The notes beneath the pieces are model-generated. The model searched no databases. It was not told the origin of the DNA and was given only the letters and a program-made list of their open reading frames with translations. Below are positions 11,950 through 34,434 of a stretch of 64,000 bases of DNA, in pieces. A program made the position numbers and the translations under genes. How positions within the stretch are numbered: the stretch's first letter is position 1; each line of letters opens with the position of its first letter. Source of the stretch: an uncultured Chloroflexia bacterium (GTDB taxonomy: Bacteria; Chloroflexota; Limnocylindria; Limnocylindrales; CSP1-4); assembly GCA_963703575.1 (NCBI GenBank), contig CAVPEU010000026.1, positions 129,850-193,849 on the forward strand. Direction: 5' to 3'.

Positions 11950-12933
11950 TCAGTACGCGGCCAGCCTCCGGATCGCGTCGGCGATCTTCGCGGGGCTGAG
12001 CATGAACCAGTCCTCCAGCACGTGGTTGTAGGGCACGCCGGGGACATCCGGGCCGGCGATGCGGGAGACCGGCCCGTCGAGGTAGTCGAACGCCTCCTCG
12101 GCGACGATCGCCGCGATCTCCGCCCCGTACCCGCCGAACCGGTTGTCCTCGTACGCGACCAGGCACTTGCCGGTCTTGCGCACGCTCGACAGGAGCGTCT
12201 CGCGGTCCAGCGGCCGCAGCGTGCGCAGGTCGATGACCTCGGTCTCGATCCCTTCTGCCGCCACGCGCTCGGCGGCTTCCAGCGCGTAATGGACCATCAG
12301 CCCGTACCCGATGACCGTTACGTGGCGCCCAGCCCGCCGGACGGCCGCCTGGCCCAACGGCACCGTGAACTCCCCGTCCGGCACGTCCCCGCGCACGGAG
12401 CGGTACATCTTCTTGTGCTCGAAGAACAGCACCGGGTCATCGTCCCGGATCGCCGTCCGGAGCAGGCCCTTGGCGTCGTACGGCGTGGACGGGATCACGA
12501 CCTTGAGCCCCGGCACGTGGGTGTAGAACGCCTCCACCGACTGCGAGTGGTAGAGCGCCCCGTGGACGCCGCCGCCGTAGGGTGCCCGGATGACGATCGG
12601 CACCGAGAACCCGTTGTTCGAGCGATAGCGCATCCGCGCCGCCTCGGACACGATCTGGTTGAACGCCGGGTGGATGAAGTCGGCGAACTGGATCTCGGCG
12701 ATCGGCCGCAGCCCGTTGAGCGCGGCGCCGATCGACGTGCCGACGATCATCGATTCGGTCAGCGGCGTGTCGATCACCCGGTCGTCGCCGAACTCGGCCC
12801 ACAGCCCGTCGGTGGCCAGGAACACGCCGCCCTTCAGGCCGACATCCTCGCCCAGCAGCACGACGGACGCGTCACGCCGCATCTCCTCGGCCATGCCCTC
12901 GCGGATCGCCTCGATGAACGTCCGGATCGCCAT
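11950..12933 (-). CDS. 2-oxoacid dehydrogenase E1 beta subunit
   Basis: Transketolase-like beta-subunit sequence (MAIRTFIEAIREGM...). ATG overlaps the E1alpha TGA (TGATG). Confidence 0.9.
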   Translation of the reverse strand: MAIRTFIEAIREGMAEEMRRDASVVLLGEDVGLKGGVFLATDGLWAEFGDDRVIDTPLTESMIVGTSIGAALNGLRPIAEIQFADFIHPAFNQIVSEAARMRYRSNNGFSVPIVIRAPYGGGVHGALYHSQSVEAFYTHVPGLKVVIPSTPYDAKGLLRTAIRDDDPVLFFEHKKMYRSVRGDVPDGEFTVPLGQAAVRRAGRHVTVIGYGLMVHYALEAAERVAAEGIETEVIDLRTLRPLDRETLLSSVRKTGKCLVAYEDNRFGGYGAEIAAIVAEEAFDYLDGPVSRIAGPDVPGVPYNHVLEDWFMLSPAKIADAIRRLAAY

Positions 12934-14015: not shown

Positions 14016-14069
14016 CGCGTCCTCCGTGCGCCGCTCCGCGGCGACCGGCTGCGCCGGCCGCATCCACGG

Positions 14070-15512
14070 CTAGAAGTTGATCGACCGCCCGTCGATGGCC
14101 ATCGCGGTCTCGGCGAGGATCTCCGAGTAGGTGGGATGGGCGTGGGTGGCGGCGCCGATCTCCCACGGGGCTGCCTCGAGGGACAGCGCGAGCGAGGCCT
14201 CCGCGATGAGGTCCGTCGCGTGCGGGCCGATGAGGTGGACGCCCAGCGTCTCGTCGGTCTCGCGGTGGCCGATGATCTTGGCGAAGCCCTCGTACTCCCC
14301 GCCGATGATCGCCTTGCCCACCGCCTGGAACGGGACCTTGGCCGTCTTGACCGCCAGGCCGCGCTCCTCGCACTGCTGCTCGGTCAGGCCGACGGACGCG
14401 ATCTCGGGCCGGCAGTACGTGGCACGCGGCTGCTTGACGTAGTCCATCGGGTGGACGTCCGGGTCACCGGCGATCGTGTGGGCGGCGATGATCCCCTCGT
14501 GCGCGGCCGTGTGCGCGAGCATCAGCCCGCCGACGATGTCCCCGATGGCGTACAGGTGCGGCTCCTTCGTCCGCATCCGGCCATCCACCTTGACGATGCC
14601 CCGGTCGATCTCGGCCGAGGTCGTCTCGAGCCCCACATCCTCCACGTTGGTCGCCCGGCCGGTGGCGACGAGCAGCATCTCGGCGGAGATCTCCGTCGCG
14701 TCCTTGCCCTCCGGCCCCACCGTGATCCGGACGCCCGCGTCCCCGGCGACGACCGACGCGGCATCGAAGCGGGCGCTGGTCATGACCGTGATCCCGCGCC
14801 GGGCGAAGGTGCGCTCCAGTTCCCTGGATACCTCGCGGTCCTCGAGCGGCACGATCGCGGGCAGGTATTCGAGCAGCGTCACGGTCGCACCCAGGTCGTG
14901 GTACATGGACGCGAACTCCACCCCGACCGCGCCGGCGCCGATCACGATCACGCTGGCGGGCATCGAGTCCATCCGCAGGACGTCGTCAGAGGTCACGATC
15001 CGGCGCCCGTCCGGGACGATCCCGGGCAGTGACTTGACCCGCGAGCCGGTCGCGAGGATCACGTCCGTGGCGTTGAGGATCCGCTCTCCGCCGGCGCCCG
15101 GCGTGCCGTCCTCGCCCGCCTGGAGGACGCGGACCTTGGTCCCGCCCTCGAGCCGTCCCCGACCCTGGACCCAGGTCACGTCGTACTTGCGGACCAGGCC
15201 CTGGACACCCTTCCACATGCGGTTGACGACCTGGTCGCGGCGCTTCGCGATCTGCGCGTAGTCGACCTCCACCTCGCCGCCCAGCCGCAGGCCGAAGTCG
15301 CCCGCGTGGCGCAGCCGCTCGTTGAACGCGGCCGACTCGAGGAGCGCCTTGGTGGGGATGCAACCGCGATGCAGGCAGGTGCCGCCCAGCTTGTCCTCGT
15401 CCACGAGGGCCACCCGCAGGCCCAGCTGCGAGGCGCGGAACGCCGCCCCATAGCCGCCGGTGCCGGCGCCCAGGACGACGAGGTCGAAATCATTGGAGGA
15501 GCCGACGGCCAT
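14070..15512 (-). CDS. lpd: Dihydrolipoyl dehydrogenase (E3)
   Basis: FAD motif GAGTGGYGAA, redox-active disulfide GGTCLHRGCIPTK, and C-terminal HAHPTYSE. Confidence 0.9.
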   Translation of the reverse strand: MAVGSSNDFDLVVLGAGTGGYGAAFRASQLGLRVALVDEDKLGGTCLHRGCIPTKALLESAAFNERLRHAGDFGLRLGGEVEVDYAQIAKRRDQVVNRMWKGVQGLVRKYDVTWVQGRGRLEGGTKVRVLQAGEDGTPGAGGERILNATDVILATGSRVKSLPGIVPDGRRIVTSDDVLRMDSMPASVIVIGAGAVGVEFASMYHDLGATVTLLEYLPAIVPLEDREVSRELERTFARRGITVMTSARFDAASVVAGDAGVRITVGPEGKDATEISAEMLLVATGRATNVEDVGLETTSAEIDRGIVKVDGRMRTKEPHLYAIGDIVGGLMLAHTAAHEGIIAAHTIAGDPDVHPMDYVKQPRATYCRPEIASVGLTEQQCEERGLAVKTAKVPFQAVGKAIIGGEYEGFAKIIGHRETDETLGVHLIGPHATDLIAEASLALSLEAAPWEIGAATHAHPTYSEILAETAMAIDGRSINF

Positions 15513-20092: not shown

Positions 20093-20792
20093 TCAGCCGC
20101 CCGCCGGGCCGGCGTCCGCCTCGATCCGGCCGGTCTCGAACGCGCGGATCAGGTCGCCCACCTTGCGCAGCGCTCCACGGACCGGGAACTCCGATTCGTC
20201 GAATCCGAGCAGCAGGATCGGCTCCGCGCCGACGAATGGCAGCGCCATCAGCACCCCGGCCTCCTCGGGCGTGAACGGACCGATGGGCCCGGTCCGGGAC
20301 GCGGTCCGGCGGGCGACGTCGGTCAGCAGCCGGAACCAGGCCCCGACGGGCTCGCGAAGGCTCGCCGCCAGGTCCGGGTCCGACCAGCCCGCCGCGACCA
20401 GCTCCTGGAGGACCCGGACGTAGCCGGAGGCCAGGTCGAGCTCCAGGAAGTCGCACGCCTGCTGCCACTGCATCGACAGCGCCTCGGGCCCGGCGTACAT
20501 CTCCGTCTGGCGCTCGAGCAGCCGCTCGTTCTCGGCGGAAAGGATCCGCAGCACGAGCTGCTGCTTTGACCCGAAGTGATAGTGGATCTGGCTCAGCGGC
20601 ACGCCTGCCGCCTCCGCGACCCGACGGGTCGAGAGCCGCGCATACCCCTCCTCCAGGAGGCACGACCGCGCGGCCGAGAGGATGGCCGCCGGGACGTCCC
20701 GCGGCCGATCCGCCCCGCCATCCCGGGACGGCCCCGGGATGGCGGCTGCGGCGACAACCTGTCGACGTTGGTCTCGCCATGCCCGACTCACC
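20093..20792 (-). CDS. TetR family transcriptional regulator
   Basis: HTH STRRVAEAAGVPLSQIHYHFGSKQQL. GTG start inferred because no ATG is in frame. Confidence 0.75.
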
Positions 20793-20835: not shown

Positions 20836-21639
20836 CTAGCTCGCCAGGATCGTGCCGCCCGCGAGCAGCAGCGCTACCCCCAGCGGCCGGCCCAGGCGCC
20901 GTCCGCCGGGCACGTTCTTCTCGATCGCCATCACCACACCCGTCCCCAGCATCCAGGCGAGGTTGCCCATGCCGAGCGCGAACAGCACGAGCATCAGCGA
21001 CCAACAGCAGCCGACGCAGTAGGCCGCATGCCGGACGCCGATCTCGAGCGCCTCCCGTACCGGCCGGACACCGTGCCAGTGGCCCATGACGAACATCAGC
21101 GGTGAGCGGCACGCCTCGAGGCAGCGGTACTTGAGCGACGAGAACTGGTAGGCACCGGACCCCAGCAGCGTCACCGCGACGACCGTGTTGGGGTGGGCGG
21201 CGAGCCACGGGACGGCATCGACCAGTCCGTGCACAGCCGCGTCCAGCAGGAACAGCCCGACCCCCACCCCCGTCCAGACGACGACGTAGGCAGTCACCAC
21301 GAGCCCGGCCAGGACGTCCGGGTGGGGGCGTCGTGCCACGACCGCCCGGAACGTCGCGACCAGCGGCAGGCTGGTGGGCAGCATCATCGCGACCGTCATC
21401 AGCAGCCAGCCGGCCACGAACAGGACGACCGTCAGGCCGGTCAATCCGTCGTCCGCCAGCTCGCGATGGTCCAGGTAGCGGGCCGCGGGCGAGCCGCTCC
21501 AGAGCCACAGGGCCGCCCAGGCAACGGGCACCAGCCCGACGAACGCGAGAAGCAGGAGACGGCCGCCCCGGGGTGCGGGACGCGGCCGGAGCCGCGCCCC
21601 CATCCCCGCGAGCGCCGTGAGACGGGGGGACGCCGTCAT
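20836..21639 (-). CDS. DUF2182-type integral membrane protein (predicted metal-binding)
   Basis: Six or more TM helices and conserved His/Cys (HWHGVR, AAYCVGCCW). Begins 12 nt after the DUF1326 stop. Confidence 0.75.
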   Translation of the reverse strand: MTASPRLTALAGMGARLRPRPAPRGGRLLLLAFVGLVPVAWAALWLWSGSPAARYLDHRELADDGLTGLTVVLFVAGWLLMTVAMMLPTSLPLVATFRAVVARRPHPDVLAGLVVTAYVVVWTGVGVGLFLLDAAVHGLVDAVPWLAAHPNTVVAVTLLGSGAYQFSSLKYRCLEACRSPLMFVMGHWHGVRPVREALEIGVRHAAYCVGCCWSLMLVLFALGMGNLAWMLGTGVVMAIEKNVPGGRRLGRPLGVALLLAGGTILAS

Positions 21640-21651
21640 GTCGACCGCCCC

Positions 21652-22263
21652 TCAGGCCGCGAACCTGAAGCTGCCCTGGACCGCGTTGTGGTCGCGCAGG
21701 CCCTTCACGGAGGGGAGCCCGTGCCGCGAGCCGTCCCGGCTGAAGTGGCTGGCCTTGGACACGTACGCGGGCGATCCCGGGATGGTGCTGAACGCCGTCT
21801 CCTGCATGACCGTCGGCAGACCGGTCATCCCGTGGAGCGGCGCCAGCTCCGCATCGGCCAGGTCGCCGATGCGCAGCGTGCCCTTGCCGCCCTGGACGGT
21901 GAACGTGATCGGCGCCCGCTCGACGGCGACGACCTCGCCGATCAGCCCGGCGATGTCCGCGATCGCGCCGCCCGCCTGGCCCGTGAACACCTTGAGCAGC
22001 GCCGCCTGCTGCCCGTCGCTCGCCCGGTCGTCCACGAACACCGCGGCCTTCCAGGAACCGGGTGTCAGCACGTTGCCGGGAATGTGCACCGACAGGGCGA
22101 GCGTGAGGCCCGACACGTCCATCCCCTCGATCGTGCCCTTGTCGATGCCCCACGCGAGGACCGAGTCGCACTTCCCGCCGTCCGGATCCTCCCCCACCCA
22201 GCACGGGCACACGACCTCGCAGGTGCAGACCTCGAGCAGCCTGCCTTCGATCTCGTAGGACAT
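21652..22263 (-). CDS. DUF1326 family protein
   Basis: N-terminal CTCEVVCPCW Cys cluster. GGAGG RBS 5 nt upstream. Characteristic partner of DUF2182. Confidence 0.75.
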   Translation of the reverse strand: MSYEIEGRLLEVCTCEVVCPCWVGEDPDGGKCDSVLAWGIDKGTIEGMDVSGLTLALSVHIPGNVLTPGSWKAAVFVDDRASDGQQAALLKVFTGQAGGAIADIAGLIGEVVAVERAPITFTVQGGKGTLRIGDLADAELAPLHGMTGLPTVMQETAFSTIPGSPAYVSKASHFSRDGSRHGLPSVKGLRDHNAVQGSFRFAA

Positions 22264-22384: not shown

Positions 22385-23359
22385 TCAAGGGGTCGGATGC
22401 GTTTTTGTCGGATGCGTTTTGCTTGGCCGCCCATCCATCGACCCGGCCCGGCCCTGCCCGGGCAGGCGGGCCTCGGGGCCGGCCGCCGTCTCGCGCGTCT
22501 CGACCAGGCCCTCCGCGGCCAGCGTGGCCAGGGCTTCGCGAACGGCGTGCGGCCCGTGCTCGCCGATCGAGCCGGCGAAGGGAATCCAGGCTCCGTCACC
22601 CGCGTCGCGGGCCCGCGCGATGATCCGGCCGCGGAGCCAGCGCGTGGTCGACGGGAAGGCTGGCTCCGGACGGCGACGCACTGGGGAGGCGGCCACGGCC
22701 CGCTCCCCCGCCGCATACCGGCACCAGGCGATCGCCGGGCAGTCCGCGCACAGGGGCTTCCGCGGCCTGCACAGCCGAGCCCCGATGTCCATCAGCGCAT
22801 GGGTCCAGTCGCCGGCCCGATCCGGCGGCAGCACCGCATCGGCCAGCGCCTGGAGCGCCGCCGGCGGGATCCCCTCCGGCCCTCCAGCGGCCACCCGTCC
22901 GAGCACGCGCCGGACGTTGGTATCGACCGCCCCGACCGGCCGCCCGAACGCGATCGCGGCGACCGCCCGCGCGGTGTACGGGCCAACGCCCGGCAGGGTC
23001 ATCAGCCCCTCGACGGTGTCGGGGACGAGCCCGCCATGGTCGGCCACGATCGCCTTGGCCGCCCGGTGGAGGTGGATCGCGCGCCGGTTGTAGCCGAGGC
23101 CGGCCCAGGCCCGCAGCACATCCGCCGCCGGGGCCACGGCCAGCGCCTCGACCGTCGGGAAGCGGCCCACCCAGGCCGTCCAGGCCTCGGCCGCCCGCTC
23201 GGCCTGCGTCTGCTGGGCCATGACCTCGGAGACCAGCACGGCGTACGGGTCGCGCGTCGCGCGGAAGGCGAGGCGGCGGCCGGTCGCGTCGTACCAGGTC
23301 AGCACCGCGTTGCGCAGCGCGGGTGCGACGGGCTCGGCGGCGACCGGCTGGGCAGGCAC
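22385..23359 (-). CDS. mutY: A/G-specific adenine DNA glycosylase (MutY-like, HhH-GPD with 4Fe-4S)
   Basis: LTWYDATGRRLAFRATRDPYAVLVSEVMAQQTQ; HhH (LPGVGPYTARAV); FeS cysteines (CRPRKPLCADCPAIAWC). Confidence 0.85.
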   Translation of the reverse strand: MPAQPVAAEPVAPALRNAVLTWYDATGRRLAFRATRDPYAVLVSEVMAQQTQAERAAEAWTAWVGRFPTVEALAVAPAADVLRAWAGLGYNRRAIHLHRAAKAIVADHGGLVPDTVEGLMTLPGVGPYTARAVAAIAFGRPVGAVDTNVRRVLGRVAAGGPEGIPPAALQALADAVLPPDRAGDWTHALMDIGARLCRPRKPLCADCPAIAWCRYAAGERAVAASPVRRRPEPAFPSTTRWLRGRIIARARDAGDGAWIPFAGSIGEHGPHAVREALATLAAEGLVETRETAAGPEARLPGQGRAGSMDGRPSKTHPTKTHPTP

Positions 23360-23400: not shown

Positions 23401-24330
23401 ATGGCGATGCGGTTCGGGGCGGCGTTCTGGGTCGAGCGGACCGGCTGGCCCGAGCTGCGCGATGCCGCGCTGCACGCGGAGGCGGCCGGCTTCGACGACC
23501 TGTGGATCGACGACCACCTCCTGTCCGACGAGGGCGACTGGCGCGACCCCAAGCTCGAAGGCTGGACCACGCTCGCGGCGGTCGCCGCCGTCACCAGCCG
23601 CCCGCGCCTGGGCACGCTCGTGTCCGCGAACACGCTCCGCAACCCGGGCCTGACGGTGAAGATGGCGACGACCCTCGACCACGTATCGGGCGGGCGGGCG
23701 ATCCTGGGTATCGGGGCCGGCTGGTTCGAGCGCGAGCACGAGGCCTTCGGCTTCGACTTCGGGAGTGGCATGGGCCAGCGGCTGGACCGTCTGGTCGAGG
23801 CCGTCCCGCTGATGCGGCGGCTGCTGGACGGCGAACAGGTGACGCACGAGGGCCGGTTCTACGCGTTCCGGGATGCCCTGTGCGCCCCCCCTCCCGTCCA
23901 GCCGCACCTGCCGATCCTGGTCGGCGGGTCAGGGCCCCGGAAGACGCTCCCTCTCGTCGCCCGGTCGGCCGACCTGTGGAACGTGTACGGCACGCCCGAA
24001 CAGGTGTCCGCATCCGATGCCGTCCTTCGGGCCGCGTGCGACGCGGCCGGCCGGGACGATCGCGAGATCGAGCGGACCGTCAACATGAACGTCGTGATCC
24101 GCCGGGACCGCGGCGAGGCGGACCGGGCGTGGGCGGCGTGGCTGCGGGCCGGCGAACCGCAGGAGGGCGAGGACGGCCTGGAGGCGGGAGGCTCCGTCGA
24201 GGAGGTGGCGACCGGCCTGGCCCGCTTCCGGGACGTCGGCTTCGATCACCCGATCCTGGTGTTCCGTCCCCCGTTCGACCTCCAGACCATGGACCGCCTG
24301 CCGGAGCTGCGCGCGCTCCTGGACGGCTGA
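23401..24330 (+). CDS. LLM-class (luciferase-like) F420-dependent oxidoreductase
   Basis: LLM fold (MRFGAAFWVE...LWIDDHLL...GIGAGW). Confidence 0.85.
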   Translation: MAMRFGAAFWVERTGWPELRDAALHAEAAGFDDLWIDDHLLSDEGDWRDPKLEGWTTLAAVAAVTSRPRLGTLVSANTLRNPGLTVKMATTLDHVSGGRAILGIGAGWFEREHEAFGFDFGSGMGQRLDRLVEAVPLMRRLLDGEQVTHEGRFYAFRDALCAPPPVQPHLPILVGGSGPRKTLPLVARSADLWNVYGTPEQVSASDAVLRAACDAAGRDDREIERTVNMNVVIRRDRGEADRAWAAWLRAGEPQEGEDGLEAGGSVEEVATGLARFRDVGFDHPILVFRPPFDLQTMDRLPELRALLDG

Positions 24331-24339: not shown

Positions 24340-25815
24340 CTAGGCCACGCCGGTGCCCACGGGCTCGGCCCCGGTCTCAGGCTCGGCCCTGGTCTCAGGC
24401 TCGGCCCCCGTCTCCGGCTCCGTCACCGCGGCCGGCTGCGGGCAACCCACCGGCTCCGGGTGCTGTGTCCTGGCCCACGCCTCGTCCGCGATCTTCTTCC
24501 AGCCGGCCGAGTAGGAGTCGATGCCGTCGCGGAGGGTCGTGAGCAGGGTCTCGGCGCCCGCGTGCGTGGGGTGGGCCCCCGTGGTCGCGACGACGTCCCG
24601 GATGACATGCGTCTCGTCGATGAGCATGCACGGCCGCAGGAGGTTCGGGCTGTACGGCTGGCGGGCCCGGATGTTGGCGAAGAACGGCGACCGAAGGATG
24701 TCGGCGAGGCTGGTGTCCTTGATGTTGTCGGTCGCGAAGTGGGTGAAGATGCAGGGTTCCACGTCGCCGCTCGAGGTCACGTGGAGGTACTGGCGGCCCG
24801 CGATGCACCCGCCGACGTAGGGAGCGTCGTTCCAGAAGTCCACGACGAGCAGCGGCTTCGTGCTCCGGATCCGCTGGGCGCCGTTGACACGCAGGTACTC
24901 GCGCTGCTCCGGCGTGGGCATCAGGTCGAGGTCCGGGTCGTCCCCGACCGGCATGTACATGAAGTGCCAGCCCCACAGGCAGCCGAGCTCGATGAGCCAG
25001 TCGGCGAACGCGTCGCTCGTGACGCCGAGACAGTTCTGCCGCGTGACCATGGTCGAGAACCCGAACGGCACGCCGGCGGCGCGCAGGGCAGCCATGCCGA
25101 GACCGGTCTTCCGGAAGGTGCCGCGTCCACGACGCACCTCGTGCTCGGCCGGGAAGCCGTCGACGCTGACGCTGACCAGCACGTTCCCCGCCCTGGCGAG
25201 GCGCTCGGCGACCGCGTCGGTCACCAGCGTCCCGTTGGTGAACACCATGAACGTCAGGTCCGGGTGGTGGTCGAACAGGTCCAGCATGCCGTGGGCCATC
25301 AGCGGCTCGCCGCCGAGCATGATCATGCCGAACGAGCCGAGATCCCTTGCCTCGTTGGCCAGGCGCTCGACGACCTCGAGCGGCAGGTCGCTCTTGCGGT
25401 CGTACTGCGATGCGTAGCAGCCCGTGCACTTGAGGTTGCAGCGCATCGTCGGGCTCGTCAGGACGACGAACGGCGTGGCGCCTCCCGTCGCGGCGAACCG
25501 CTCCTGCCGCGGCGGCCCGCTGCGCATCCAGGTGGCCATGTTGGTGATCAGCCGGGCGCGGACGTGCGGCGAGGTTGCCGCGTAGATGCGCCTCACCCAC
25601 TGCATCTCGTTCGGCGGCACGTCCTGCGCCGCCGCGTTCTCGAGGTACCGGCGCGCCGTCGCGACCATCTGCTTCTGGGCCGGGCGGGAGGCGACCATCT
25701 CTACGATCCGGGCGATCCGGGCGGCGTTCCGCTCCGGATCGGACATCACCAGGCTCGCAGCGGTACCGATCGCTCGTTCGGCAAAGCGCTGGCCAAGGCC
25801 ATCTCGAGTGGTCAT
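24340..25815 (-). CDS. Radical SAM/SPASM-domain enzyme with a ~120-aa N-terminal extension; function unassigned
   Basis: CNLKCTGCY rSAM cluster; C-terminal twitch/SPASM (GGCIAGRQYLHVTSSGDVEPCIF...RPCMLID). C-terminal PETGAE/PETRAE repeats. AGGAGAGAGG RBS. Confidence 0.85.
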   Translation of the reverse strand: MTTRDGLGQRFAERAIGTAASLVMSDPERNAARIARIVEMVASRPAQKQMVATARRYLENAAAQDVPPNEMQWVRRIYAATSPHVRARLITNMATWMRSGPPRQERFAATGGATPFVVLTSPTMRCNLKCTGCYASQYDRKSDLPLEVVERLANEARDLGSFGMIMLGGEPLMAHGMLDLFDHHPDLTFMVFTNGTLVTDAVAERLARAGNVLVSVSVDGFPAEHEVRRGRGTFRKTGLGMAALRAAGVPFGFSTMVTRQNCLGVTSDAFADWLIELGCLWGWHFMYMPVGDDPDLDLMPTPEQREYLRVNGAQRIRSTKPLLVVDFWNDAPYVGGCIAGRQYLHVTSSGDVEPCIFTHFATDNIKDTSLADILRSPFFANIRARQPYSPNLLRPCMLIDETHVIRDVVATTGAHPTHAGAETLLTTLRDGIDSYSAGWKKIADEAWARTQHPEPVGCPQPAAVTEPETGAEPETRAEPETGAEPVGTGVA

Positions 25816-26028
25816 CGGACGTCCTCTCTCCTGCGATCGTGGACAACATCGGCTTGTGCGTCTCGATCCCCTGGTCCGGGGGCCGCGGCGGAGCTTCGAG
25901 CCCCGTGACGACCCGGCGGCCCCGCGGGCTCGGCCGTCGATGGAACCCAGTACACGCCGCCGGCGGCGCGGCAGTGAGGGCTGTTGGGTCTCTATCCCTC
26001 GTGACATTCATCCCAATTGGAAGTGATC

Positions 26029-27185
26029 TCACAATCCGTTCTCGCCGCCTGACTCCGCCCGGGAGTCGCCCACCCGGGGTTGCGCGTCCGCCACGCGCCC
26101 GCCGCCGAGCAGGCCGGGGTGACCCAGCCGCAGGACCAGCAGCAGGAACCAGCCGACCACGACCGGTACCAGCCACTGGACAAGGCGGAACAGGACCAGG
26201 GCGGCGGTGATCTGCTCCGCATGGCCGGGCCCCGAGACGTCCGTGAGCAGCCCGACATAGACGACCTCGGTGACCCCGACGGCCCCCGGCGTAACCGGGA
26301 CCAGGAGGGCCAGGGTGCTCACGGCCATGACCGCGAGGACCGACCACGGGGAGATCACGTCCGGACCGACCCCGGACACCACGAGCGCAAGCTCGAGCAC
26401 GACGAACCACGAGAGCTTCGCGCCCACGGCACCGGCATAGGCAACCCCGGCGTCTCGCGCGAGGCTGTCGTGCACGATGCCCCGCAGGCCGGCCACGGAG
26501 GCGGCGATGCCGGCCGGCGGGCTCCGGTGGAGAAGGCCGAACGCATGTCGCGCCAGCAATTCGAGCGCCCGGCCCGCCCGGGCGGCGATCCCCTGGGACG
26601 ACGCGAGGACCACGAGACCCGCGACGGCGATGGCAAGGACCGCCAGCGAAACGCCGGCCAGCCAGGGCAAGCCGGCCGGAGCGCCGCCGGTCGTGACCAG
26701 GAGGCCCGCCAGCGCCACGAGGGGCAGGGCGAGAGCCGCCAGGGTCTCCAACAGGCCGCCGAGGACGACCGCCGCGCCCGCGGCGTCGGTCCGGATCCCC
26801 ACCCGCGGAACAGGACGAGCCGCGTCGCCACGTCGGAGGGGCCCGGGATCACGCCGGCGACCGCACGCGCGGCCAGGTCGGCGGCGACGACACGGATCAA
26901 CGCGAGGCGGCCGACGAGCACGTGGTACGGGATCGCGTTCGCGACCCAGGCGAGCACGGCGGCCGCAACGAGCGCGGCCACCTGGCCCGCGGACAGCCCC
27001 GAGAGGGTCGCGCCGACCAGCGCGTAGTCCACCATCCGGGGCAACACGACCCCGAACACCACGACCAGGACGCCCACCACCAGCGCGATGCGTCGGACCA
27101 GGGCCCGGGGCCTGGTGTCGACCGACCCCGGGAGCGGCCCGGGCCGGCGAGGGGGCGGATCCGTGGAGGCCGGGGCGGCGGTCAT
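26029..27185 (-). CDS. Flippase-like / lysylphosphatidylglycerol-synthase-TM (UPF0104) family membrane protein; frame interrupted near 26805
   Basis: The N-terminal half is in one frame up to ...ATRLVLFRG, and the C-terminal half is in the -1 frame from VGIRTDAAGAAVV... to ENGL*. The switch falls at the G-run CGCGGGTGGGG. Confidence 0.7.
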
Positions 27186-27264
27186 GACTGGTCCTTCCAG
27201 CGCGGATCGGGCCCCGCCATTCCACGCGCGGCCGGCGTCGAGGATGAGGGCCGCACCACCCGGA

Positions 27265-28758
27265 TCAGCGTGCCTGTTCTCCCGAACGGGAGGCCCTCGC
27301 ACCAGGCGCGACGGCTCCGGCCACCCGGCCGGGGAGGTCGACGGCCGGGGCGCGGGGGGCGATGCCGGCGAGGCGCTCCCCGACCGTCGCCGCGGCCGCC
27401 AGGCCCTGCGCGATGCAGTCCGGCAGGCCGACACCCCGGTACGAGGCACCGACGACGCCCACGGCCGGCCAGGCGGTCATCGCCTCGTCGATGGCGGCCA
27501 CGCGGCGCAGGTGGCCGACGGTGTAGCGCGGCATCGACGAGGCATGGCGAGCGAGCCGGGCGAGGACCGGCTCGCCCCGGATCCCGAGCGTCCGTTCCGC
27601 GTCCGCGCGGGCGGCGGCGACGAGCGCCTCGTCCGGAAGCGAGGTCCACGCCGCCTCGTCGCGGACGAAGATCCGGAGCAGGACGGCGCCCTCGGGTGCC
27701 CGGTCGGGCCACTTCTCCGACGTCCAGGTGCAGGCGGAGATCGCGCCGCCCTCCGTCGGGGGCACCAGGTAGCCGTGCCCGACAAGCGGATGCCCCACCG
27801 CGTCGCGTGGGTACGCGAGCGTCACGAGGATCGACGTCCCGTGCGGGATGCCATCGAGCGCGCGTGCGGCGCGCGGCGCCTCGTCATCGAGCAGGGCCGC
27901 CGCCACCGGGGCCGGCGCGGCGACCAGGACGGCGTCGAACCGGACGACGGACCCATCCGCGAACCGCGCCGCGACCCCGGAGCCGGCCCGCGCGAGCGTC
28001 CGCACGCCGAGGCCCAGCCGCACGTCCACGCCTGCCTCGCCCAGGGATGCCTCGAGCGCCGAGGTCAGCGTGTCCATGCCACCGCGCAGCGTCGCGAAGG
28101 CGCCCGGGGACGTCGCGCCGGCGGGGCGCGCAGCCGCCGCCCTGCGCGTCGCCCTCCCGTCGGACAGGCCGGCGAACAGGAGGCTCCGGTGCTCGCGCTC
28201 CGCGGTCCGCAGCTGGGGAACGACGGCATCGAGGGACAGCTCGTCGATCGGCGTGCCGTAGACGCCGCCCACGAGCGGGCCCGCCAGCCGGTCCACGAGC
28301 GGCGACCCGAGCCGCCGCCGCAGGAACGTCCCCACCGCGATGTCGTCGTCGGGGAGCATTCGCGGCCAGGCGATGTCCTTCGTCATCCGGATCTTCTCGG
28401 GCCACGAGAACAGCTTCGTCCTCGCGAACGGCATCGCCCTGGTCGGCAGGACGAGGCCCAGGCCCTCGGGCATGGGGACGAGCTCGCCGCGGTGGCGGAT
28501 GAACACCGCGCGCGGGTCCTTCGTCCCCACCAGCTCGCCGCCGAGCCCGACCTCGCGCGCCAGCGTCACGGCCGTCGGCCGGGCCGCGAGGAACGAGTCC
28601 GGGCCCCGCTCGACGACGAAGCCGTCGATACGCTCGGTCGAGACCTTGCCGCCGAGCCGTTCGCCGGCCTCCGCCAGCACGACCGGCACGCCCTGGCGGG
28701 CCAGTGCCCGCGCGGCCACCAGGCCCGTGACGCCGCCGCCGACGACGAGGACGCGCAT
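27265..28758 (-). CDS. hemY: Coproporphyrinogen III / protoporphyrinogen oxidase (HemY/CgoX family, FAD)
   Basis: MRVLVVGGGVTGLVAARALA dinucleotide fold; full PPO-family length with a ~40-aa C-terminal tail. Confidence 0.85.
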   Translation of the reverse strand: MRVLVVGGGVTGLVAARALARQGVPVVLAEAGERLGGKVSTERIDGFVVERGPDSFLAARPTAVTLAREVGLGGELVGTKDPRAVFIRHRGELVPMPEGLGLVLPTRAMPFARTKLFSWPEKIRMTKDIAWPRMLPDDDIAVGTFLRRRLGSPLVDRLAGPLVGGVYGTPIDELSLDAVVPQLRTAEREHRSLLFAGLSDGRATRRAAAARPAGATSPGAFATLRGGMDTLTSALEASLGEAGVDVRLGLGVRTLARAGSGVAARFADGSVVRFDAVLVAAPAPVAAALLDDEAPRAARALDGIPHGTSILVTLAYPRDAVGHPLVGHGYLVPPTEGGAISACTWTSEKWPDRAPEGAVLLRIFVRDEAAWTSLPDEALVAAARADAERTLGIRGEPVLARLARHASSMPRYTVGHLRRVAAIDEAMTAWPAVGVVGASYRGVGLPDCIAQGLAAAATVGERLAGIAPRAPAVDLPGRVAGAVAPGARASRSGEQAR

Positions 28759-28771
28759 CGGTCGAGCGCCC

Positions 28772-30067
28772 TCAGGCGCCGGTGCCGGGGCCGGGCGCGG
28801 CCGGAGCCGGAGCGGGCGTCGAAGCGGCCGCCGTCGAGGCGGCCGCCGGCATGCCGTACGCCGGCACCGTCCCTGACGGCACGTACGGGCAGAGCGGGTC
28901 CGCCTCCAGCGGATCGCCCGTCCAGGCGTAGGCCCGCGCCCGCGAGCCCCCGCAGATCCGCGCGAACTCGCAGCGCCCGCAGCGGCCCTTGAACCCCTCG
29001 GGGTTTCGCAGGTCACGCATCACCGGGTGGTCGCGGTAGAGGTCCACGACCGACGCCTGGCGCACGTTCCCCAGCGGGATCGGCAGGAAGCCGGACGGGT
29101 TCACCGTCCCGTCGTGGGCCACGAACACGATGCCGTTGCCGTCGCGGATCCCGAACCCCCGCCCCACCGACGTCTTCGCGATCGCGTCGCTTTCCATCCC
29201 GGCCGCCTGCATCTGGCGGATCACGAGCCGGCGGTAGTGGGTCGCCTCCGTCGTCTTGACCTGGAACGGGGCGGTCCGTGACAGGTCGTACAGCCAGGCG
29301 TTGAGCTTCTCGGACTCGCCGGGCGTGACCTCGCGCAGCGCGCTCCCACGGCCCACGCTGATCAGCATGAACAGGCTCCAGCGCATGACGTCCATGCCCA
29401 GGAGCAGCTCGTAGATCGCGGGCAGGTCGCTCAGCGTCTCATCGGTGACCAGGGTGTTGACCTGGATCGGCAGGCCGGCGGCGCGGGCCCAGCGGGCGGC
29501 CTGGAGCGTCTTGTCGAACGTGCCCGGGACCATGCGGAAGCCGTCGTGGCGAGCCGCGTCCGACCCGTCGAGCGAGAGCGAGATGTTCTGGACGCCCGCC
29601 TCGTGGAGGCTCGCCAGCACGTCCGGCGTGAGCAGCGGCGTGGCGGCCGGCGCCAGCGAGACGCCGATGCCGCGGGCGGTCGCGGCGCGCACCAGGTCGT
29701 GGAGGTCCGGGCGGTTGAGCGGGTCGCCGCCGGTGAGCACGACGTGCGGGTACGGCCGCCCGAAGCCGGTGATGTCGTCCAGGAGCCGGTAACCCTCCTC
29801 GGTCGTCAGCTCCAGCGGGTCGCGCTCCGCGATGGCGGAGGCGCGGCAGTGGCGGCAGGCGAGCCCGCAGGCGAGCGTCGTCTCCCAGTACACGAGCATC
29901 GGCGCGCGGTCGTACACGTAGCCCTCGGCACGGACGGCACCCACGCCCGTGATGCCGGACGGGTGCCCGCCCCGAGGACCGCCGGGATGGCCGGCGGGAT
30001 GGCCGGCGGAATTGTCGGCGGGCCGGCCCGGGCGGCCGGCGGGGACGGGCTCCATGGACGTCGTCAT
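28772..30067 (-). CDS. Radical SAM NirJ/AhbC/AhbD-family enzyme (AhbD-like putative coproheme decarboxylase)
   Basis: YWETTLACGLACRHC rSAM motif and C-terminal CGRCEFARICGG...CPYVP auxiliary cluster. AAGGAGA RBS. N-terminal His/Pro/Gly-rich extension. Confidence 0.75.
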   Translation of the reverse strand: MTTSMEPVPAGRPGRPADNSAGHPAGHPGGPRGGHPSGITGVGAVRAEGYVYDRAPMLVYWETTLACGLACRHCRASAIAERDPLELTTEEGYRLLDDITGFGRPYPHVVLTGGDPLNRPDLHDLVRAATARGIGVSLAPAATPLLTPDVLASLHEAGVQNISLSLDGSDAARHDGFRMVPGTFDKTLQAARWARAAGLPIQVNTLVTDETLSDLPAIYELLLGMDVMRWSLFMLISVGRGSALREVTPGESEKLNAWLYDLSRTAPFQVKTTEATHYRRLVIRQMQAAGMESDAIAKTSVGRGFGIRDGNGIVFVAHDGTVNPSGFLPIPLGNVRQASVVDLYRDHPVMRDLRNPEGFKGRCGRCEFARICGGSRARAYAWTGDPLEADPLCPYVPSGTVPAYGMPAAASTAAASTPAPAPAAPGPGTGA

Positions 30068-30087
30068 CTCGGATCTCCTTCGGCCGC

Positions 30088-31015
30088 TCAGGCGACCGCT
30101 GTGGGGCGCAGCGCGTCGGCCGCGATGTCGGCCAGGCCGGCGATGAACGTCGGGTCGGTGTTCATCGAGCGTGCGCGGACGAGGTGGACGCCCAACCGAT
30201 CGGCCACCGCCTGCGCCTCGATGTCGATGTCGTAGAGGACCTCGAGGTGGTCGGTGACGAAGCCGACGGGCCGGATCACCAGCTCCGGGACGCCTTCGCC
30301 GGCCAGCCGCCGGATCTCGTCCAGGATGTCCGGGCCCAGCCACGGCTCGCCGGTCCGGCCGGCGCTCTGGAACGCGAACTCGTACCGCCCCAGGCCCAGC
30401 CGCTCCGCCACCAGCCGCGAGGTCGCGGCCAGCTCGTCCGGATACGGGTCGCCTTCCGCGAGCACGCGGGCGGGGAGGCTGTGGGCGGTGAACATCACGC
30501 GGACCCGTGCCGGATCCTCGAACCGGCCGAGCGCCTCCCGGACCGTCTGGGCCAGCGCCTCGATGAACCGGGGCTGGGCGTGCCACGAGTCCACGAACTC
30601 GACCGCGGGCGCCCCCTCCCCGAGATCCGCCAGCGCCGCGTCCACGGCCCGGCGATACCCGACGCCGTTCGAGGACCGGTGCGGCGCCATCGCGATCGCG
30701 ACGAACCGCTCCACCCCGTCGGTGGCCATGCCCTTGACGACGTCGCCGATCCGCGGCTCGATGTGCCGCATCCCGGCGTACACCGCTATCGAGCGTGCCG
30801 CGCCCCGTCAGCTCCGCCTCCAGCGCTGCCCGCTGCGCGTCCATGATCCGCGACAGCGGCGAGCCGCCGCCGATCGCCCGGTAGCGGCCCACCAGCTCCT
30901 CCAGCAGGTGGGGCGGCGGCGGGCTGCCGCGCCGGATGTCCGTGTAGTAGGCCTCGACCTGGTCCAGCCGGTCGGGGCTGCCGTAGGCCATCAGCAGGAC
31001 GGCGTCGCGGGTCAT
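30088..31015 (-). CDS. hemH: Ferrochelatase (coproporphyrin ferrochelatase CpfC/HemH); frame interrupted near 30800-30815
   Basis: N-terminus MTRDAVLLMAYGSPDRLDQVEAYYTDIRRG...AELTG is in one frame; the rest (VYAGMRHIEP...HLEVLYDIDIEA...) is in the +1 frame. ATGA overlap with the hemE stop. Confidence 0.8.
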
Positions 31016-32094
31016 CGGGAGGCCCCGGAATCGTGGACGAGGTCGACGAGGCGGGCGAGGTGGTCGGGGTTGGTGCCCGGCAGCACGCCGTGCCCGAGGT
31101 TGAACACGTGGCCGGGGCGGCCGCCGTTCTGGCCGAGGATCCAGCGGGCGCTCTCCACGACGCCCTCCCAGGGTCCGAGCAGGAGCGTCGGGTCGAGGTT
31201 GCCCTGCACGCCGCGATCCCCGACCAGCCGCCGCCCATCGGCAAGGGAGATCCGCCAGTCGAGCCCGATCACGTCGCCACCGGCCGAGGCCTGGAGGCGG
31301 AGCAGGCCGGCCGTGCCGGTGCCGAAGTGGATCGACGGGACCCCGAGCTTCCCGACGGCGTCGAACAGGCGCCGGTACCAGGGCAGGAGGCGGCGCTCGT
31401 AATCCAGCGGGCTCAGGCCGCCCACCCAGGAGTCGAAGACCTGGACGGCCTCGGCGCCGGCGGCCACCTGCGCTGCGAGGTAGCGGATCGTCGCCTCGGT
31501 GAGGACGTGGAGCAGCGCCGCCCACGTCTCGGGATCCGCGTGCATCAGGCGCCGGGTCCGGAGGAAGTCGCGCGACGGACCGCCCTCGACCAGGTAGCAG
31601 GCGAGGGTGAACGGCGCCCCGGCGAAGCCGATCAGCGGCACCGGCGACTCGCGCCGGATCAGCCGGATGGCCTCCAGCAGCGGGGCCACCGCGAACGACG
31701 GCTCGAACTCGCGCAGGGCGCGCACGTCGGCGAGGGTCCGGATCGGGTGCTCGATGACCGGCCCCACGCCCTCGCGGATCTCGAACTCGACGCCCAGCCC
31801 GGCGAGCGGCGTGGTGATGTCGGCGAACAGGATCGCCGCGTCCACGCCCAGGCGGCGGACCGGCTGGAGGGTGACCTCGGCGCACAGCCCGGGGTCGCGG
31901 GTGATCTCGAGCAGGGTCGCCCGCTCTCGGACGGCGCGGTACTCCGGCAGGGCGCGACCCGCCTGGCGCATGAACCAGACCGGCGTGGTGTCCACGGGCA
32001 CCCCGCGGGCGGCGCGCAGGAAGCGCGTCTCGGGGCGCGGGGCGGGGCTGCCGGCCGGGGCAGCCGGGGCGGCGGCGCGCGTCTCGGCCGTCAT
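31012..32094 (-). CDS. hemE: Uroporphyrinogen decarboxylase
   Basis: PVWFMRQAGRALPEY signature. ATGA overlap with the hemL stop. Confidence 0.9.
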   Translation of the reverse strand: MTAETRAAAPAAPAGSPAPRPETRFLRAARGVPVDTTPVWFMRQAGRALPEYRAVRERATLLEITRDPGLCAEVTLQPVRRLGVDAAILFADITTPLAGLGVEFEIREGVGPVIEHPIRTLADVRALREFEPSFAVAPLLEAIRLIRRESPVPLIGFAGAPFTLACYLVEGGPSRDFLRTRRLMHADPETWAALLHVLTEATIRYLAAQVAAGAEAVQVFDSWVGGLSPLDYERRLLPWYRRLFDAVGKLGVPSIHFGTGTAGLLRLQASAGGDVIGLDWRISLADGRRLVGDRGVQGNLDPTLLLGPWEGVVESARWILGQNGGRPGHVFNLGHGVLPGTNPDHLARLVDLVHDSGASR

Positions 32095-33407
32095 GCCGCG
32101 AACGCCCGTCGCACCGCGTCCAGGGTCGCCCTGACCTCCGCGTCGCCGTGGGCGACGCCGATGAACCAGGCCTCGAACTGGGACGGCGGCAGCAGTACGC
32201 CTTCGTCCAGCATGCCGCCGAAGAAGCGCGCGTACGCCTCGCGGTCCGCGGTCAGCGCCTGCGCGCCGTCCCGCGGCGGGGAGGCGAGGAAGAACACCGT
32301 GAGCAGCGAGCCGACCCGCGAGATCGCGACCTCGCGGCCGGCCGCCGCGGCCGCCTGGCGCAGCCCCGCCTCCAGGGTGGCGCCGGTGTGCTCGAGCACC
32401 TCGTACACGTACGGCGTGAGCAGGTCCAGCGTGGCCACCCCGGCCGCCATCGACAGCGGGTGGCCGCTGAGGGTCCCCGCCTGGTAGACGCCGCCCTCCG
32501 GGGCGACGTGCGCCATCAGGTCCGCACGCCCGCCGTAGGCTCCGATCGGCAGCCCGCCGCCGATGATCTTGCCCAGCGTCGTGAGGTCCGGCACGATCCC
32601 GTACCGCTCCTGCGCCCCGCCGCGCGCGACGCGGAACCCGGTGATGACCTCGTCGAAGATCAGCAGCGCGCCGTTCGCCTCCGTCTGCTCGCGCAGCGCG
32701 TCCAGGAAGCCCGGCTCCGGGGCGATGACGCCCACGTTGGCGCCCACCGGCTCCACGATGATCGCCGCGACCTGGCCCGGATGGGCGCGGAAGGCCTCCG
32801 CGACCGCGTCGACATCGTTGTACGGGATCACGATCGTGTCCCGCGCCGTGCCCGCCGTCACGCCGGCCGAGCCCGGCATGGCCAGCGTCGCGAGGCCGGA
32901 CCCCGCCTCGACGAGGAGGCTGTCGCCGTGCCCGTGGTACCCGCCGGCGAACTTGACGACCAGGTCCCGGCCGGTGGCGCCGCGGGCCAGCCGGATCGCG
33001 CTCATCACGGCCTCGGTGCCGGACGAGGTGAACCGCATCCGTTCGATGGACGGCATGGCCGCGCGGATGCGCTCGCCCAGCTCCACCTCCCGGGGACCGG
33101 TCGCGCCCAGCGCGAACCCGTCGAGGGCCGCCTCCCGGACGGCGTTGACCACCGCCGGGGCGGCATGGCCCAGGATCGCCGGCCCCCAGGCGCCGATGTA
33201 GTCCAGGTACCAGCGGCCGTCGGCGTCCCGGACGCGGGGCCCCTCGCCCCGGTCCAGCACGAGCGGCGGCCGCCCGACCGAGCGGAAGGCCCGCACGGGG
33301 CTGTTGACGCCGCCCGGGAACAGGTCCGCGGCCCGGGCGCGAAGGTCGTCCTGGCGGGATGCGGCCGGCGTCGCTCCCGCGTCCGGGTCGCCGATGAACA
33401 TCGTCAT
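32091..33407 (-). CDS. hemL: Glutamate-1-semialdehyde 2,1-aminomutase
   Basis: PLP-dependent aminotransferase class III (FPGGVNSPVRAF; lysine in TLGKIIGGG). Confidence 0.9.
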   Translation of the reverse strand: MTMFIGDPDAGATPAASRQDDLRARAADLFPGGVNSPVRAFRSVGRPPLVLDRGEGPRVRDADGRWYLDYIGAWGPAILGHAAPAVVNAVREAALDGFALGATGPREVELGERIRAAMPSIERMRFTSSGTEAVMSAIRLARGATGRDLVVKFAGGYHGHGDSLLVEAGSGLATLAMPGSAGVTAGTARDTIVIPYNDVDAVAEAFRAHPGQVAAIIVEPVGANVGVIAPEPGFLDALREQTEANGALLIFDEVITGFRVARGGAQERYGIVPDLTTLGKIIGGGLPIGAYGGRADLMAHVAPEGGVYQAGTLSGHPLSMAAGVATLDLLTPYVYEVLEHTGATLEAGLRQAAAAAGREVAISRVGSLLTVFFLASPPRDGAQALTADREAYARFFGGMLDEGVLLPPSQFEAWFIGVAHGDAEVRATLDAVRRAFAA

Positions 33408-33408
33408 G

Positions 33409-34434
33409 TCAGCCCTCCCGGGCCCAGGCCGCGAGGTCCGCCGCGGCATAGGTGATCACGAACCCCGCCCCCGCGCGCAGGATCGCCGTGGTGGTCTCGG
33501 TCAGGGCGCGACGGCGGTCGATCCAGCCGTTCCGGGCGGCCGCCTCGATGGTCGCGTACTCGCCGCTCACCTGGTAGCCGCCGATCGGGACGTCGAACCG
33601 CCGCCGCGCCGCGGCCAGGATGTCCAGCGACGGCAGCGCCGGCTTGACCAGCAGCATGTCGGCGCCCTCCGAGAGGTCGATCTCCATCTCGCGCATCGAC
33701 TCGCGCCCGTTGGCCGGGTCCATCTGGTAGCCGCGCCGGTCGCCGAAGGCGGGCGTGGAGCCCGCGGCCTCGCGGAACGGGCCGTAGAACGCGGACGCGG
33801 TCTTGGCCGCGTAGGCGAGGATCGCGGTGTCGTGGTGGCCGTCCATGTCCAGCCCATGCCGGATCGCGGCGACCTGGCCGTCCATCATGCCGCTGGGCGC
33901 CACGATGTCGGCGCCGGCCTCGGCCTGGGAGACCGCGGTGCGCGCGTACAGCTCGATGGTGGCGTCGTTGTCCACCCGGCCGTCGGCGAGGAGCGGGCCG
34001 CAGTGGCCGTGGTCCGTGTATTCGCACAGGCAGGTGTCCGCGATGAGCGCGAGATCGAGGTCGGCGTCCCGCAGGCGACGGAGCGCCTCCTGGACGATGC
34101 CGTCCGCAGCCCAGCCGCCGGTGCCGATGGCATCCTTCTCCGCCGGCAGGCCGAACAGGATGAGTCCCCCGATCCCCAGCTCCTCCAGCGCCCGGGCGTC
34201 CTTGAGCGCCTCGTCCGGCGTCACCCGCTCCACGCCGGGCATCGAGCCGACCGGCTCGCGGCGACCCCGCCCGGGGGTCACGAACAGGGGCGCCACGAGC
34301 TGCCGCGGATGGATCCGCGTCTCGCGCACGAACGCCCGGAGCGTCTCGGTCCGGCGCGTCCGGCGAAGCCGGTGGGCGGCGGGTACCTCCGGGACCGGGT
34401 GTGCGGCGGCCGTCAGGTCGGTGACAAGGCTCAT
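33409..34434 (-). CDS. hemB: Porphobilinogen synthase (ALA dehydratase)
   Basis: ALAD active-site region DTCLCEYTDHGHCG and GADIVAPSGMMDG. GGAGGA RBS. Confidence 0.9.
   Translation of the reverse strand: MSLVTDLTAAAHPVPEVPAAHRLRRTRRTETLRAFVRETRIHPRQLVAPLFVTPGRGRREPVGSMPGVERVTPDEALKDARALEELGIGGLILFGLPAEKDAIGTGGWAADGIVQEALRRLRDADLDLALIADTCLCEYTDHGHCGPLLADGRVDNDATIELYARTAVSQAEAGADIVAPSGMMDGQVAAIRHGLDMDGHHDTAILAYAAKTASAFYGPFREAAGSTPAFGDRRGYQMDPANGRESMREMEIDLSEGADMLLVKPALPSLDILAAARRRFDVPIGGYQVSGEYATIEAAARNGWIDRRRALTETTTAILRAGAGFVITYAAADLAAWAREG

Follow-up and report, generated by a model that had tools for sequence, protein, structure and literature searches.

The window analysed here, a stretch of 64,000 nucleotides (nt) of contig CAVPEU010000026.1 (assembly GCA_963703575.1), carries on its minus strand a gene whose 491-residue radical S-adenosylmethionine (SAM) product very probably belongs to Mss, a known family of membrane-spanning lipid synthases. 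Judged from its sequence, the enzyme is proposed to make diabolic-type membrane-spanning lipids, a reading to which we assign a probability of about 0.62; that tail-to-tail coupling of lipid chains takes place in this organism would follow by analogy, and is given slightly better than even odds. Mss is the radical SAM enzyme of Thermoanaerobacter ethanolicus (WP_129545148.1) and Thermotoga maritima (Tmari_0825 / WP_004080829.1), the two confirmed cases, and when expressed anaerobically in Escherichia coli it couples two fatty-acid tails to give diabolic-type diacids (Sahonero-Canavesi et al., 2022, Sci Adv, PMC13159169). A preliminary description of the locus, made from the sequence, had considered a lipid-modifying role plausible and had named “Tes/Mss-like” enzymes as an assignment to check. 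That role is now the best reading, with the protein falling in Mss.

The assignment is carried in part by relatives that others have already listed as Mss homologues. Six Clostridium members of the family, 41-44% identical to the window protein (those of loci L064, L038, L032, L061 and L037 and a C. putrefaciens cluster-mate), were matched by exact-sequence look-up to WP_063555523, WP_027623630, WP_104409342, WP_084117662, WP_106063554 and WP_115640679, and all six accessions stand under “Mss homologe” in Supplementary Table 3 of PMC13274423 (2026), which requires >30% identity and E<1e-30 to Mss. That table gives no Mss homologue but the family member for C. liquoris and C. putrefaciens; for C. 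algidicarnis, six of the seven tabulated accessions lie in the family member's 90% cluster, the seventh not being among the members shown. The top 120 matches in a search started from the C. paraputrificum member are all of Clostridium type. Of 10 thermophile-looking representatives named, one is a Thermosipho sp. protein and none is from T. maritima or T. ethanolicus; the Thermosipho sp. protein is 37% identical over 396 residues (E 9e-94) and has every Mss motif, and the known diabolic-acid producers that have Mss homologues include Thermosipho species (PMC13159169). The authors of Mss count as homologues proteins with at least 30% identity and E<=1e-50 to WP_129545148.1 or WP_004080829.1; the identities to the six Clostridium proteins and to the Thermosipho sp. 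protein serve here as stand-ins for identity to these confirmed enzymes.

Conserved sequence blocks point the same way. Six are described in words for Mss in the supplement to bioRxiv 10.1101/2022.04.21.487849, and this verbal description, rather than a set of aligned Mss sequences, was compared with an alignment (A1) of 38 diverse family members, on which all statements about invariant columns are based. Block I, CNxxCxGC, corresponds to CNLKCTGC at residues 126-133, in which C126, N127, C130, G132 and C133 are invariant. Block II, GGE with conserved L, F and N, is represented by L167, G168, G169, E170, F189 and N194; block III, an N/S/Gly-rich segment with Arg, by N211, S217, G220, R228, R229, G230 and G232; and block IV, G, S, N and W followed by P, Q and R, by G252, S254, N261, W283, P289, Q304 and R305. 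The D-F of block V, its Y, H and N among glycines and the VEPC..F that follows find their counterparts in D326, F327, Y343, H345, G350, V352, E353, P354, C355 and F357, and block VI, three prolines and a Cys, in P387, P395 and C396. About 65 columns of the alignment are invariant, and each of the six blocks falls on such columns; they include, besides those of block I, G168, G169, E170, D326, F327, N329, D330, G336, C337, E353, P354, C355, P395 and C396.

The family is large and oddly distributed. A word-indexed search returned 5995 proteins at E<=1e-5 among 8000 candidates scored, nearly all of 450-500 residues (a few of 553) and covering about 75-98% of the query, and thousands of homologues are 40-62% identical to the window protein over its full length. 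When 1.84 billion representatives were searched exhaustively, 499 clusters (50% identity) reached E<=1e-30, and a scan of GTDB with one genome per species confirmed 597 relatives. The best 80 of these 597 come from Actinomycetota, Thermoleophilia, Gaiellales, Anaerolineae, Dehalococcoidia, Atribacterota, many Clostridium species, deltaproteobacteria, Patescibacteria and Woesearchaeota; Thermotogales (Thermosipho sp.) and DPANN archaea are also reached. This is the same unusual spread as that of published Mss matches, which have been reported from Firmicutes, Actinobacteria (Coriobacteriia), Chloroflexi, Atribacterota, candidate phyla and DPANN/Asgard archaea (PMC13159169; bioRxiv 10.1101/2022.04.21.487849) and which, in a Black Sea survey, were most abundant in Actinobacteriota and occurred also in Chloroflexota, Patescibacteria and Woesearchaeia. 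Neither Pfam nor NCBIfam holds a dedicated Mss model, which explains why the protein had been taken for an orphan; the enzyme and its N-terminal domain, described earlier as unrecognised, alike belong to a family of about 500 clusters at 50% identity that has been in the literature as Mss homologues since 2022. Public records add to the impression by misnaming members “Cyclic pyranopterin monophosphate synthase” (C. ljungdahlii, C. acetireducens) or “Anaerobic sulfatase-maturating enzyme” (C. liquoris).

Profile searches with hidden Markov models placed the protein only in broad classes: Pfam recognises Radical_SAM at residues 121-257 and SPASM at residues 337-389, whereas no NCBIfam model reaches its cutoff, the top scores being NirJ2 with 102 bits and AhbD with 94 bits, both against 500, and TIGR04053 giving 68.7 bits against 395. 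In an AlphaFold2 model built from the 38-member alignment (mean predicted local distance difference test score [pLDDT] 88.6, predicted template-modelling score 0.87), five helices at residues 2-25, 31-41, 45-62, 69-80 and 83-108, with pLDDT of ~90, precede the radical SAM barrel, which confirms the long extension noticed before the CNLKCTGCY core in the preliminary description. All 38 aligned members carry this region, which among the folded parts of the protein is conserved least: its mean column identity is 0.42 compared with 0.67 in the core and 0.79 in the twitch region, the most conserved part.

The C-terminal region departs from the full SPASM pattern. Beyond CX3CX2C, only C337, C355 and C396 are invariant cysteines, C279 being present in 87% of the aligned members. 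The spacing C337-x12-G350-x4-C355 fits the first half of the SPASM motif, but the second half (CX2CX5CX3C) is absent from the family alignment, so that the 7-Cys motif is incomplete and the domain is twitch-like; it would accommodate at most one auxiliary cluster. Thus, of the “twitch/SPASM cluster” reported earlier, the twitch part stands and the full SPASM part does not. No transmembrane segment was detected in the protein, for which the highest 19-residue Kyte-Doolittle mean is 1.25. The closest solved structures by sequence are SkfB, SuiB and PqqE, and a Foldseek search of the PDB yielded generic SPASM/twitch matches only, with template-modelling (TM) scores of about 0.45-0.49 at 15-23% identity.

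A reaction scheme can be proposed by analogy with the two tested Mss enzymes and the archaeal tetraether synthase Tes. The cluster bound by C126, C130 and C133 would cleave SAM to a 5'-deoxyadenosyl radical, which would attack a fatty acyl chain of a membrane glycerolipid and remove a hydrogen at its omega or omega-1 carbon. The resulting carbon radical might be held by the auxiliary cluster, for which C337, C355 and C396 are the likely ligands and one site would stay open, and could then bond with the tail of another acyl chain, one that belongs to the opposite leaflet. The expected product would be diabolic or iso-diabolic acid, a membrane-spanning lipid. The helical N-terminal domain is probably part of a lipid-binding tunnel or of a membrane-docking surface.

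Genes that recur beside family members in unrelated lineages support a lipid substrate, and their pattern argues against a role in the maturation of peptides that are ribosomally synthesised and then modified post-translationally (RiPPs). Open reading frames (ORFs) of at least 70 residues were called in 85 loci, and the roughly 1100 neighbouring proteins were clustered all-against-all. DegV, a fatty-acid-binding protein, lies near family members in eight distinct loci of Actinomycetota, Chloroflexota and Saccharibacteria, and patatin in four. A PlsC acyltransferase gene stands directly upstream and co-oriented in three deltaproteobacterial loci, and a divergent cluster of PlsY, PF03706 and family 4 glycosyltransferase (GT4) genes adjoins family members in three actinobacterial loci. 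In Clostridium (L025, L027, L037, L038, L061, L062, L064, L065, L078 and L083) the Mss-like gene keeps a fixed place: the lactate racemase cofactor genes larC, larE and larB precede it, and it is followed by genes for a solute-binding protein, a GT4 glycosyltransferase and two APH/CotS-like kinases; in Coriobacteriia and Thermosipho it is flanked by TetR-family regulators. No neighbour is universally conserved in the 85 loci, and the largest neighbour clusters cover at most 17 of them, mostly through Clostridium synteny. The idea of a novel orphan system, which was to be dropped if the family proved known or its neighbourhood not conserved, therefore fails on both points.

Several observations weigh against the proposal that this protein makes diabolic-type lipids. 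The link to WP_129545148.1 and WP_004080829.1 runs through listed homologues and the motif description rather than through a direct alignment, and identity to any characterised Mss is probably only 30-40%, a range in which radical SAM functions can diverge. The lack of a universal neighbour counts on the same side, as do paralogues: L029, L067 and L085 have tandem copies, and for some Clostridium species at least two Mss homologues are tabulated (PMC13274423). The authors of Mss note that homologues and detected membrane-spanning lipids do not always go together, and the Mss hosts reported to 2022 are all anaerobes (PMC13159169), whereas the window includes oxygen-linked genes, for a HemY-type oxidase, a 2-oxoacid dehydrogenase complex and a copper chaperone. 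It also encodes FeoB and an oxygen-independent AhbD-like enzyme of TIGR04053. The protein may alternatively be an Mss-family paralogue with a different lipid reaction, be it another coupling position, a mid-chain cross-link of the kind made by the tetraether synthase Gms or some other acyl or alkyl C-C bond. Such a paralogue is a minority possibility of some weight: copies exist within the family, identity to the Thermotogales and Clostridium members is only 37-44%, only three auxiliary cysteines are conserved where two auxiliary clusters have been described for Tes and Gms, Mss homologues are not always matched by detected membrane-spanning lipids, and the lipid-gene neighbours speak for a lipid substrate without pointing to a particular reaction. 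What favours Mss activity over it is that all six described sequence blocks are present and that for several Clostridium species no Mss homologue other than the family member is tabulated.

The immediate surroundings of the gene could suggest a different substrate altogether, namely a tetrapyrrole handled by an AhbD/NirJ-like enzyme serving heme synthesis, with the adjacent PF03706 membrane protein as a heme or porphyrin transporter. Indeed, the Mss-like and PF03706 genes form the tail of a co-oriented cluster (hemA, hemCD, hemB, hemL, hemE, cpfC, a second radical SAM/SPASM gene and hemY), the top NCBIfam matches are NirJ2 and AhbD, and several homologues of the membrane protein are labelled “putative heme transporter” by JGI. 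The NirJ2 and AhbD scores, however, are about 100 bits where 500 are required, and a heme-related radical SAM role is already filled, because the second radical SAM gene is a genuine AhbD-like TIGR04053 member, only 27% identical to the Mss-like protein, within the cluster itself. Neither hemY nor any other shared heme-gene neighbour was found in the other ~85 family loci by tblastn and clustering, in which recurrent neighbour clusters were annotated, and the family occurs in Patescibacteria and DPANN archaea, which mostly lack heme synthesis. A heme-related function is thus very unlikely. Still less probable is a role as RiPP maturase, with the N-terminal domain binding a precursor peptide whose gene lies elsewhere. 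Its attraction is that SkfB, SuiB, PqqE and the anaerobic sulfatase-maturating enzyme (anSME) are the closest solved structures by sequence and fold, but those matches are generic, the 7-Cys SPASM motif is absent and no NCBIfam maturase model comes to its cutoff. The N-terminal domain is an all-helical bundle in the model, not a winged helix with beta-sheet of the type of the RiPP recognition element; the spacer upstream of the gene lacks a small ORF; and no recurrent small partner appears among the clustered neighbours, at the ORF size used. The argument of the preliminary description against a classical RiPP maturase therefore holds, with maturase models far below cutoff. An anSME was rejected separately, there being no such model among the top 25 NCBIfam matches and no sulfatase among the annotated window genes. 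The full combination of an active Mss enzyme, a single three-Cys auxiliary cluster and a host (taken here as a high-GC actinobacterium) with oxygen-linked metabolism seems improbable.

The gene itself is real and intact (Table 1). Its ORF of 1476 nt, 491 codons and a stop, runs from an ATG at 25815 to a stop codon at 24340-24342. This start is supported by the N-termini of the 38 aligned homologues, which line up with it, by a Shine-Dalgarno (SD)-like AGGAGAGAGGA run 6 nt upstream and by the gene call in a sister strain, which opens MTTRDGLGQ; one database copy of the same protein begins instead at M24 (468 residues). The PETGAE/PETRAE repeats noted earlier at the C-terminus correspond to a tandem repeat in the DNA. 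The encoded tail is disordered in the AlphaFold2 model (pLDDT <50 for residues 454-491) and missing from the aligned homologues, and is thus lineage-specific. The sister strain is represented by Logan contig L086, which is 99.18% identical to window positions 25577-33742 and has the same gene order. Substitutions between the two cluster at 25600-25999 (16 in 400 nt, over the spacer and the opening ~70 codons of the Mss-like gene), compared with about 0-6 per 200 nt in the other 7.7 kb; recombination could have its boundary here, or constraint on the N-terminal domain could be relaxed. Elsewhere in the family some genomes hold two Mss-like copies, as tandem pairs of about 495 and 463 residues in L067 and L085 and as two genes within one locus in L029, and such paralogues may differ in substrate or coupling position.

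Table 1. Features of the Mss-like locus, in window coordinates (position 1 is the first nucleotide of the window)
Feature	Position	Strand	Basis or detail
F420-dependent LLM-class oxidoreductase gene	23401..24330	+	Pfam Bac_luciferase; TIGR03560 231.6 vs 231.4 cutoff
Radical SAM gene, probable Mss-family member	24340..25815	-	ORF and translation, Pfam, homologues
Tandem repeat, 18-nt unit x 3.3 copies, encoding the EPETGA/EPETRA tail	24362..24420	-	Tandem Repeats Finder score 97
Twitch/partial-SPASM region (residues 301-400): DFWND, C337-x12-G-x4-C355 (VEPC), RPC396	24616..24915	-	Pfam SPASM and conservation
Codons of CNLKCTGC (C126, C130, C133), radical SAM [4Fe-4S] motif in the Mss-type extended form CNxxCxGC	25417..25440	-	Columns invariant in 38-member alignment
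N-terminal helical domain (residues 1-110)	25486..25815	-	AlphaFold2 helices; in all 38 aligned homologues
Spacer between membrane gene and radical SAM gene, 213 nt, with SD-like AGGAGAGAGGA at 25822-25832	25816..26028	-	Sequence
Imperfect 32-nt palindrome centred on CCAATTGG, in the low-GC patch, overlapping the membrane gene stop codon	26001..26032	.	18-nt arms, 72% complementary
PF03706 (LPG_synthase_TM / UPF0104, flippase-like) membrane gene, frameshifted	26029..27185	-	1157 nt, two frames
G run (GGGG on the minus strand) one G short of the sister strain; frameshift site	26797..26800	-	Alignment with L086
Second radical SAM/SPASM gene, between cpfC and hemY	28772-30067	-	TIGR04053 467 bits vs 395 cutoff; AhbD 304 bits

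Upstream of the gene lies a spacer of 213 nt, not 215 as first given, in which scans found no sigma-70-like promoter, intrinsic terminator or Rfam family. The earlier finding that it contains no short precursor-peptide ORF is borne out by the ORF listing, which has no credible small ORF at 25816-26028. The spacer has the same length in the sister strain, with seven substitutions. Because the radical SAM gene has its own ribosome-binding site behind this spacer, it is probably transcribed on its own. A patch of low G+C content (0.48-0.52 at 25980-26049, versus 0.73 for the window) had been noticed there and proposed as a palindromic regulatory site. The patch exists, but the regulatory part of the claim gains nothing from statistics or comparison: the window has a single CCAATTGG where 0.2 are expected, and one or more copies turn up in 18 of 100 shuffles, so the palindrome is no more than chance would give; two of the seven spacer substitutions fall in the patch, which is thus not especially conserved, and one of them raises its symmetry (a sample of one). 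That so AT-rich a patch in a 73% GC genome serves as operator or promoter is plausible but unproven.

The preliminary description also drew attention to the two genes on either side. The upstream, co-oriented gene is indeed a flippase-like member of PF03706, as stated, but it is not intact here, a 1-nt deletion having been overlooked. Its length is not a multiple of three, with the first 130 codons and the last 256 in different frames. With one G restored it encodes 385 residues that match PF03706 over positions 2-302 of 302 with 57.8 bits against a gathering score of 33.4, the C-terminal part alone giving 41.5 bits; L086 has an intact protein of 386 residues that is 98% identical. A second single-base lesion lies in the ferrochelatase gene (about 30088-31020, minus strand), split by a 1-nt insertion near 30792, within 30785-30800, where L086 again has an intact protein, of 308 residues. 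Consensus errors are suggested by the occurrence of two such frameshifts within 4 kb, one of which hits a gene of the heme pathway. It is also possible that both are real pseudogenes; Logan contig L001 carries the frameshift of the membrane gene too.

The pairing of this membrane gene with the radical SAM gene is lineage-specific, because the closest homologues of the membrane protein do not lie beside radical SAM genes. Seen from the radical SAM side, a PF03706 neighbour is confined to this lineage and one further actinobacterial clade, and tblastn with the restored membrane protein against the loci fetched to that point found only this genome's own copy, on L001. From the membrane-protein side, none of three homologue loci examined has a radical SAM neighbour; homologues at 47-52% identity adjoin PAP2, DUF1003, MalT-like and diacylglycerol-kinase genes and not radical SAM or heme genes. 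The JGI label “putative heme transporter” is borne by P0343, P0352, P0353, P0366 and other PF03706 homologues, and the window copy directly follows hemY. The F420-dependent LLM-class oxidoreductase gene on the other side does face the radical SAM gene, the stop codons of the convergent pair lying 9 nt apart, but it is not a conserved neighbour, being found in this genome and absent from all other family loci examined. Both genes are local neighbours in this lineage, not obligate partners.

Farther out, the second radical SAM gene could encode an oxygen-independent coproheme decarboxylase of a coproporphyrin-dependent pathway; no chdC/hemQ was seen among the annotated window genes. Positions 9289-15512 (minus strand) hold the genes of a 2-oxoacid dehydrogenase complex (E3, E1 alpha, E1 beta and E2) followed by lipoyl synthase. 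If of the branched-chain type, this complex would provide the primers of iso-fatty acids, from which iso-diabolic acids are made. A DUF1326 gene and a gene for PpoB2 (DUF2182, “copper chaperone”) lie side by side at 20836-22263 (minus strand), flanked by a TetR-like gene (20093-20602) and a MutY-like glycosylase gene (22385-23359). At 49157-49262 (minus strand) there is a thiamine pyrophosphate riboswitch (62.4 bits against a gathering score of 54.3), upstream of a YkoE/YkoD/YkoC-like transporter at 46214-49102 (minus strand; PF09819, double ABC ATPase and CbiQ), a known arrangement for the uptake of thiamine precursors.

The gene is a new member of an already described family, Mss having been known since 2022. 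Branched glycerol dialkyl glycerol tetraethers (GDGTs) and diabolic-acid lipids are widely used as proxies for past temperature and pH, their biological sources being mostly unknown, and each well-supported Mss-family gene in an uncultured lineage is an added candidate producer. Were Mss active in this host, the synthesis of membrane-spanning (iso)diabolic-acid lipids would reach beyond strict anaerobes, and uncultured Actinomycetota would be a non-acidobacterial source of branched GDGT precursors. Two points stand out from what was known of the family: compared with the Mss hosts known so far, this one looks less strictly anaerobic, and the family seems, from its conserved residues, to have a single auxiliary cluster with three cysteines. 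The latter, being family-wide, bears on mechanism, in comparison with the two-auxiliary-cluster model drawn from Tes. A practical consequence of the missing Pfam and NCBIfam models is that members of this family are called simply “radical SAM protein”, or misnamed MoaA or anSME, and hence look orphan.

Similarities to characterised systems extend to both the membrane gene and the enzyme. The frame-repaired membrane protein matches the full profile of the N-terminal flippase domain of MprF and of YbhN (PF03706, UPF0104), but lacks the lysyl-phosphatidylglycerol synthase domain, scores 25.9 bits against a cutoff of 600 with the MprF model and is frameshifted here. The enzyme has AhbD, NirJ and TIGR04053 as its best-scoring NCBIfam models, and its gene adjoins a heme cluster; however, it reaches only a fifth of the cutoffs and has an extra N-terminal domain, and a true TIGR04053 gene lies 3 kb upstream.

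Among lipid-modifying enzymes, Tes (GDGT-MAS; PDB 7TOL, 7TOM) likewise uses radical SAM chemistry on lipid tails, and the sp3-sp3 coupling of chain ends proposed for the window protein is analogous to its reaction; the authors of Mss report a catalytic architecture similar to that of Tes. At the level of sequence and fold the relationship is remote, with a 7TOL profile E-value of 1e-7 over the radical SAM core alone and a Foldseek rank of 42 (TM 0.38). Tes has two auxiliary clusters and a rubredoxin-like site where the window family has three extra conserved cysteines only, and neither these features nor family-level similarity to Tes was found in the window protein. Gms, the synthase of glycerol monoalkyl glycerol tetraethers (GMGTs; Garcia et al., 2024, PMC11214058), is also a radical SAM enzyme of the SPASM/twitch class and forms C-C bonds between lipid chains, and bacterial Gms homologues are reported in genomes that have Mss; three [4Fe-4S] clusters are described for it, and the likeness to the window protein is one of description only. 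Mss is the closest of the known systems. The window protein differs from it in coming from a 73% GC genome of actinobacterial type with oxygen-linked genes, known Mss hosts being anaerobes, in its lineage-specific EPETxA repeat tail and in having an activity proposed from sequence alone, but shares with it the radical SAM motif CNxxCxGC, the GGE, DF and VEPC motifs and the proline/cysteine block.

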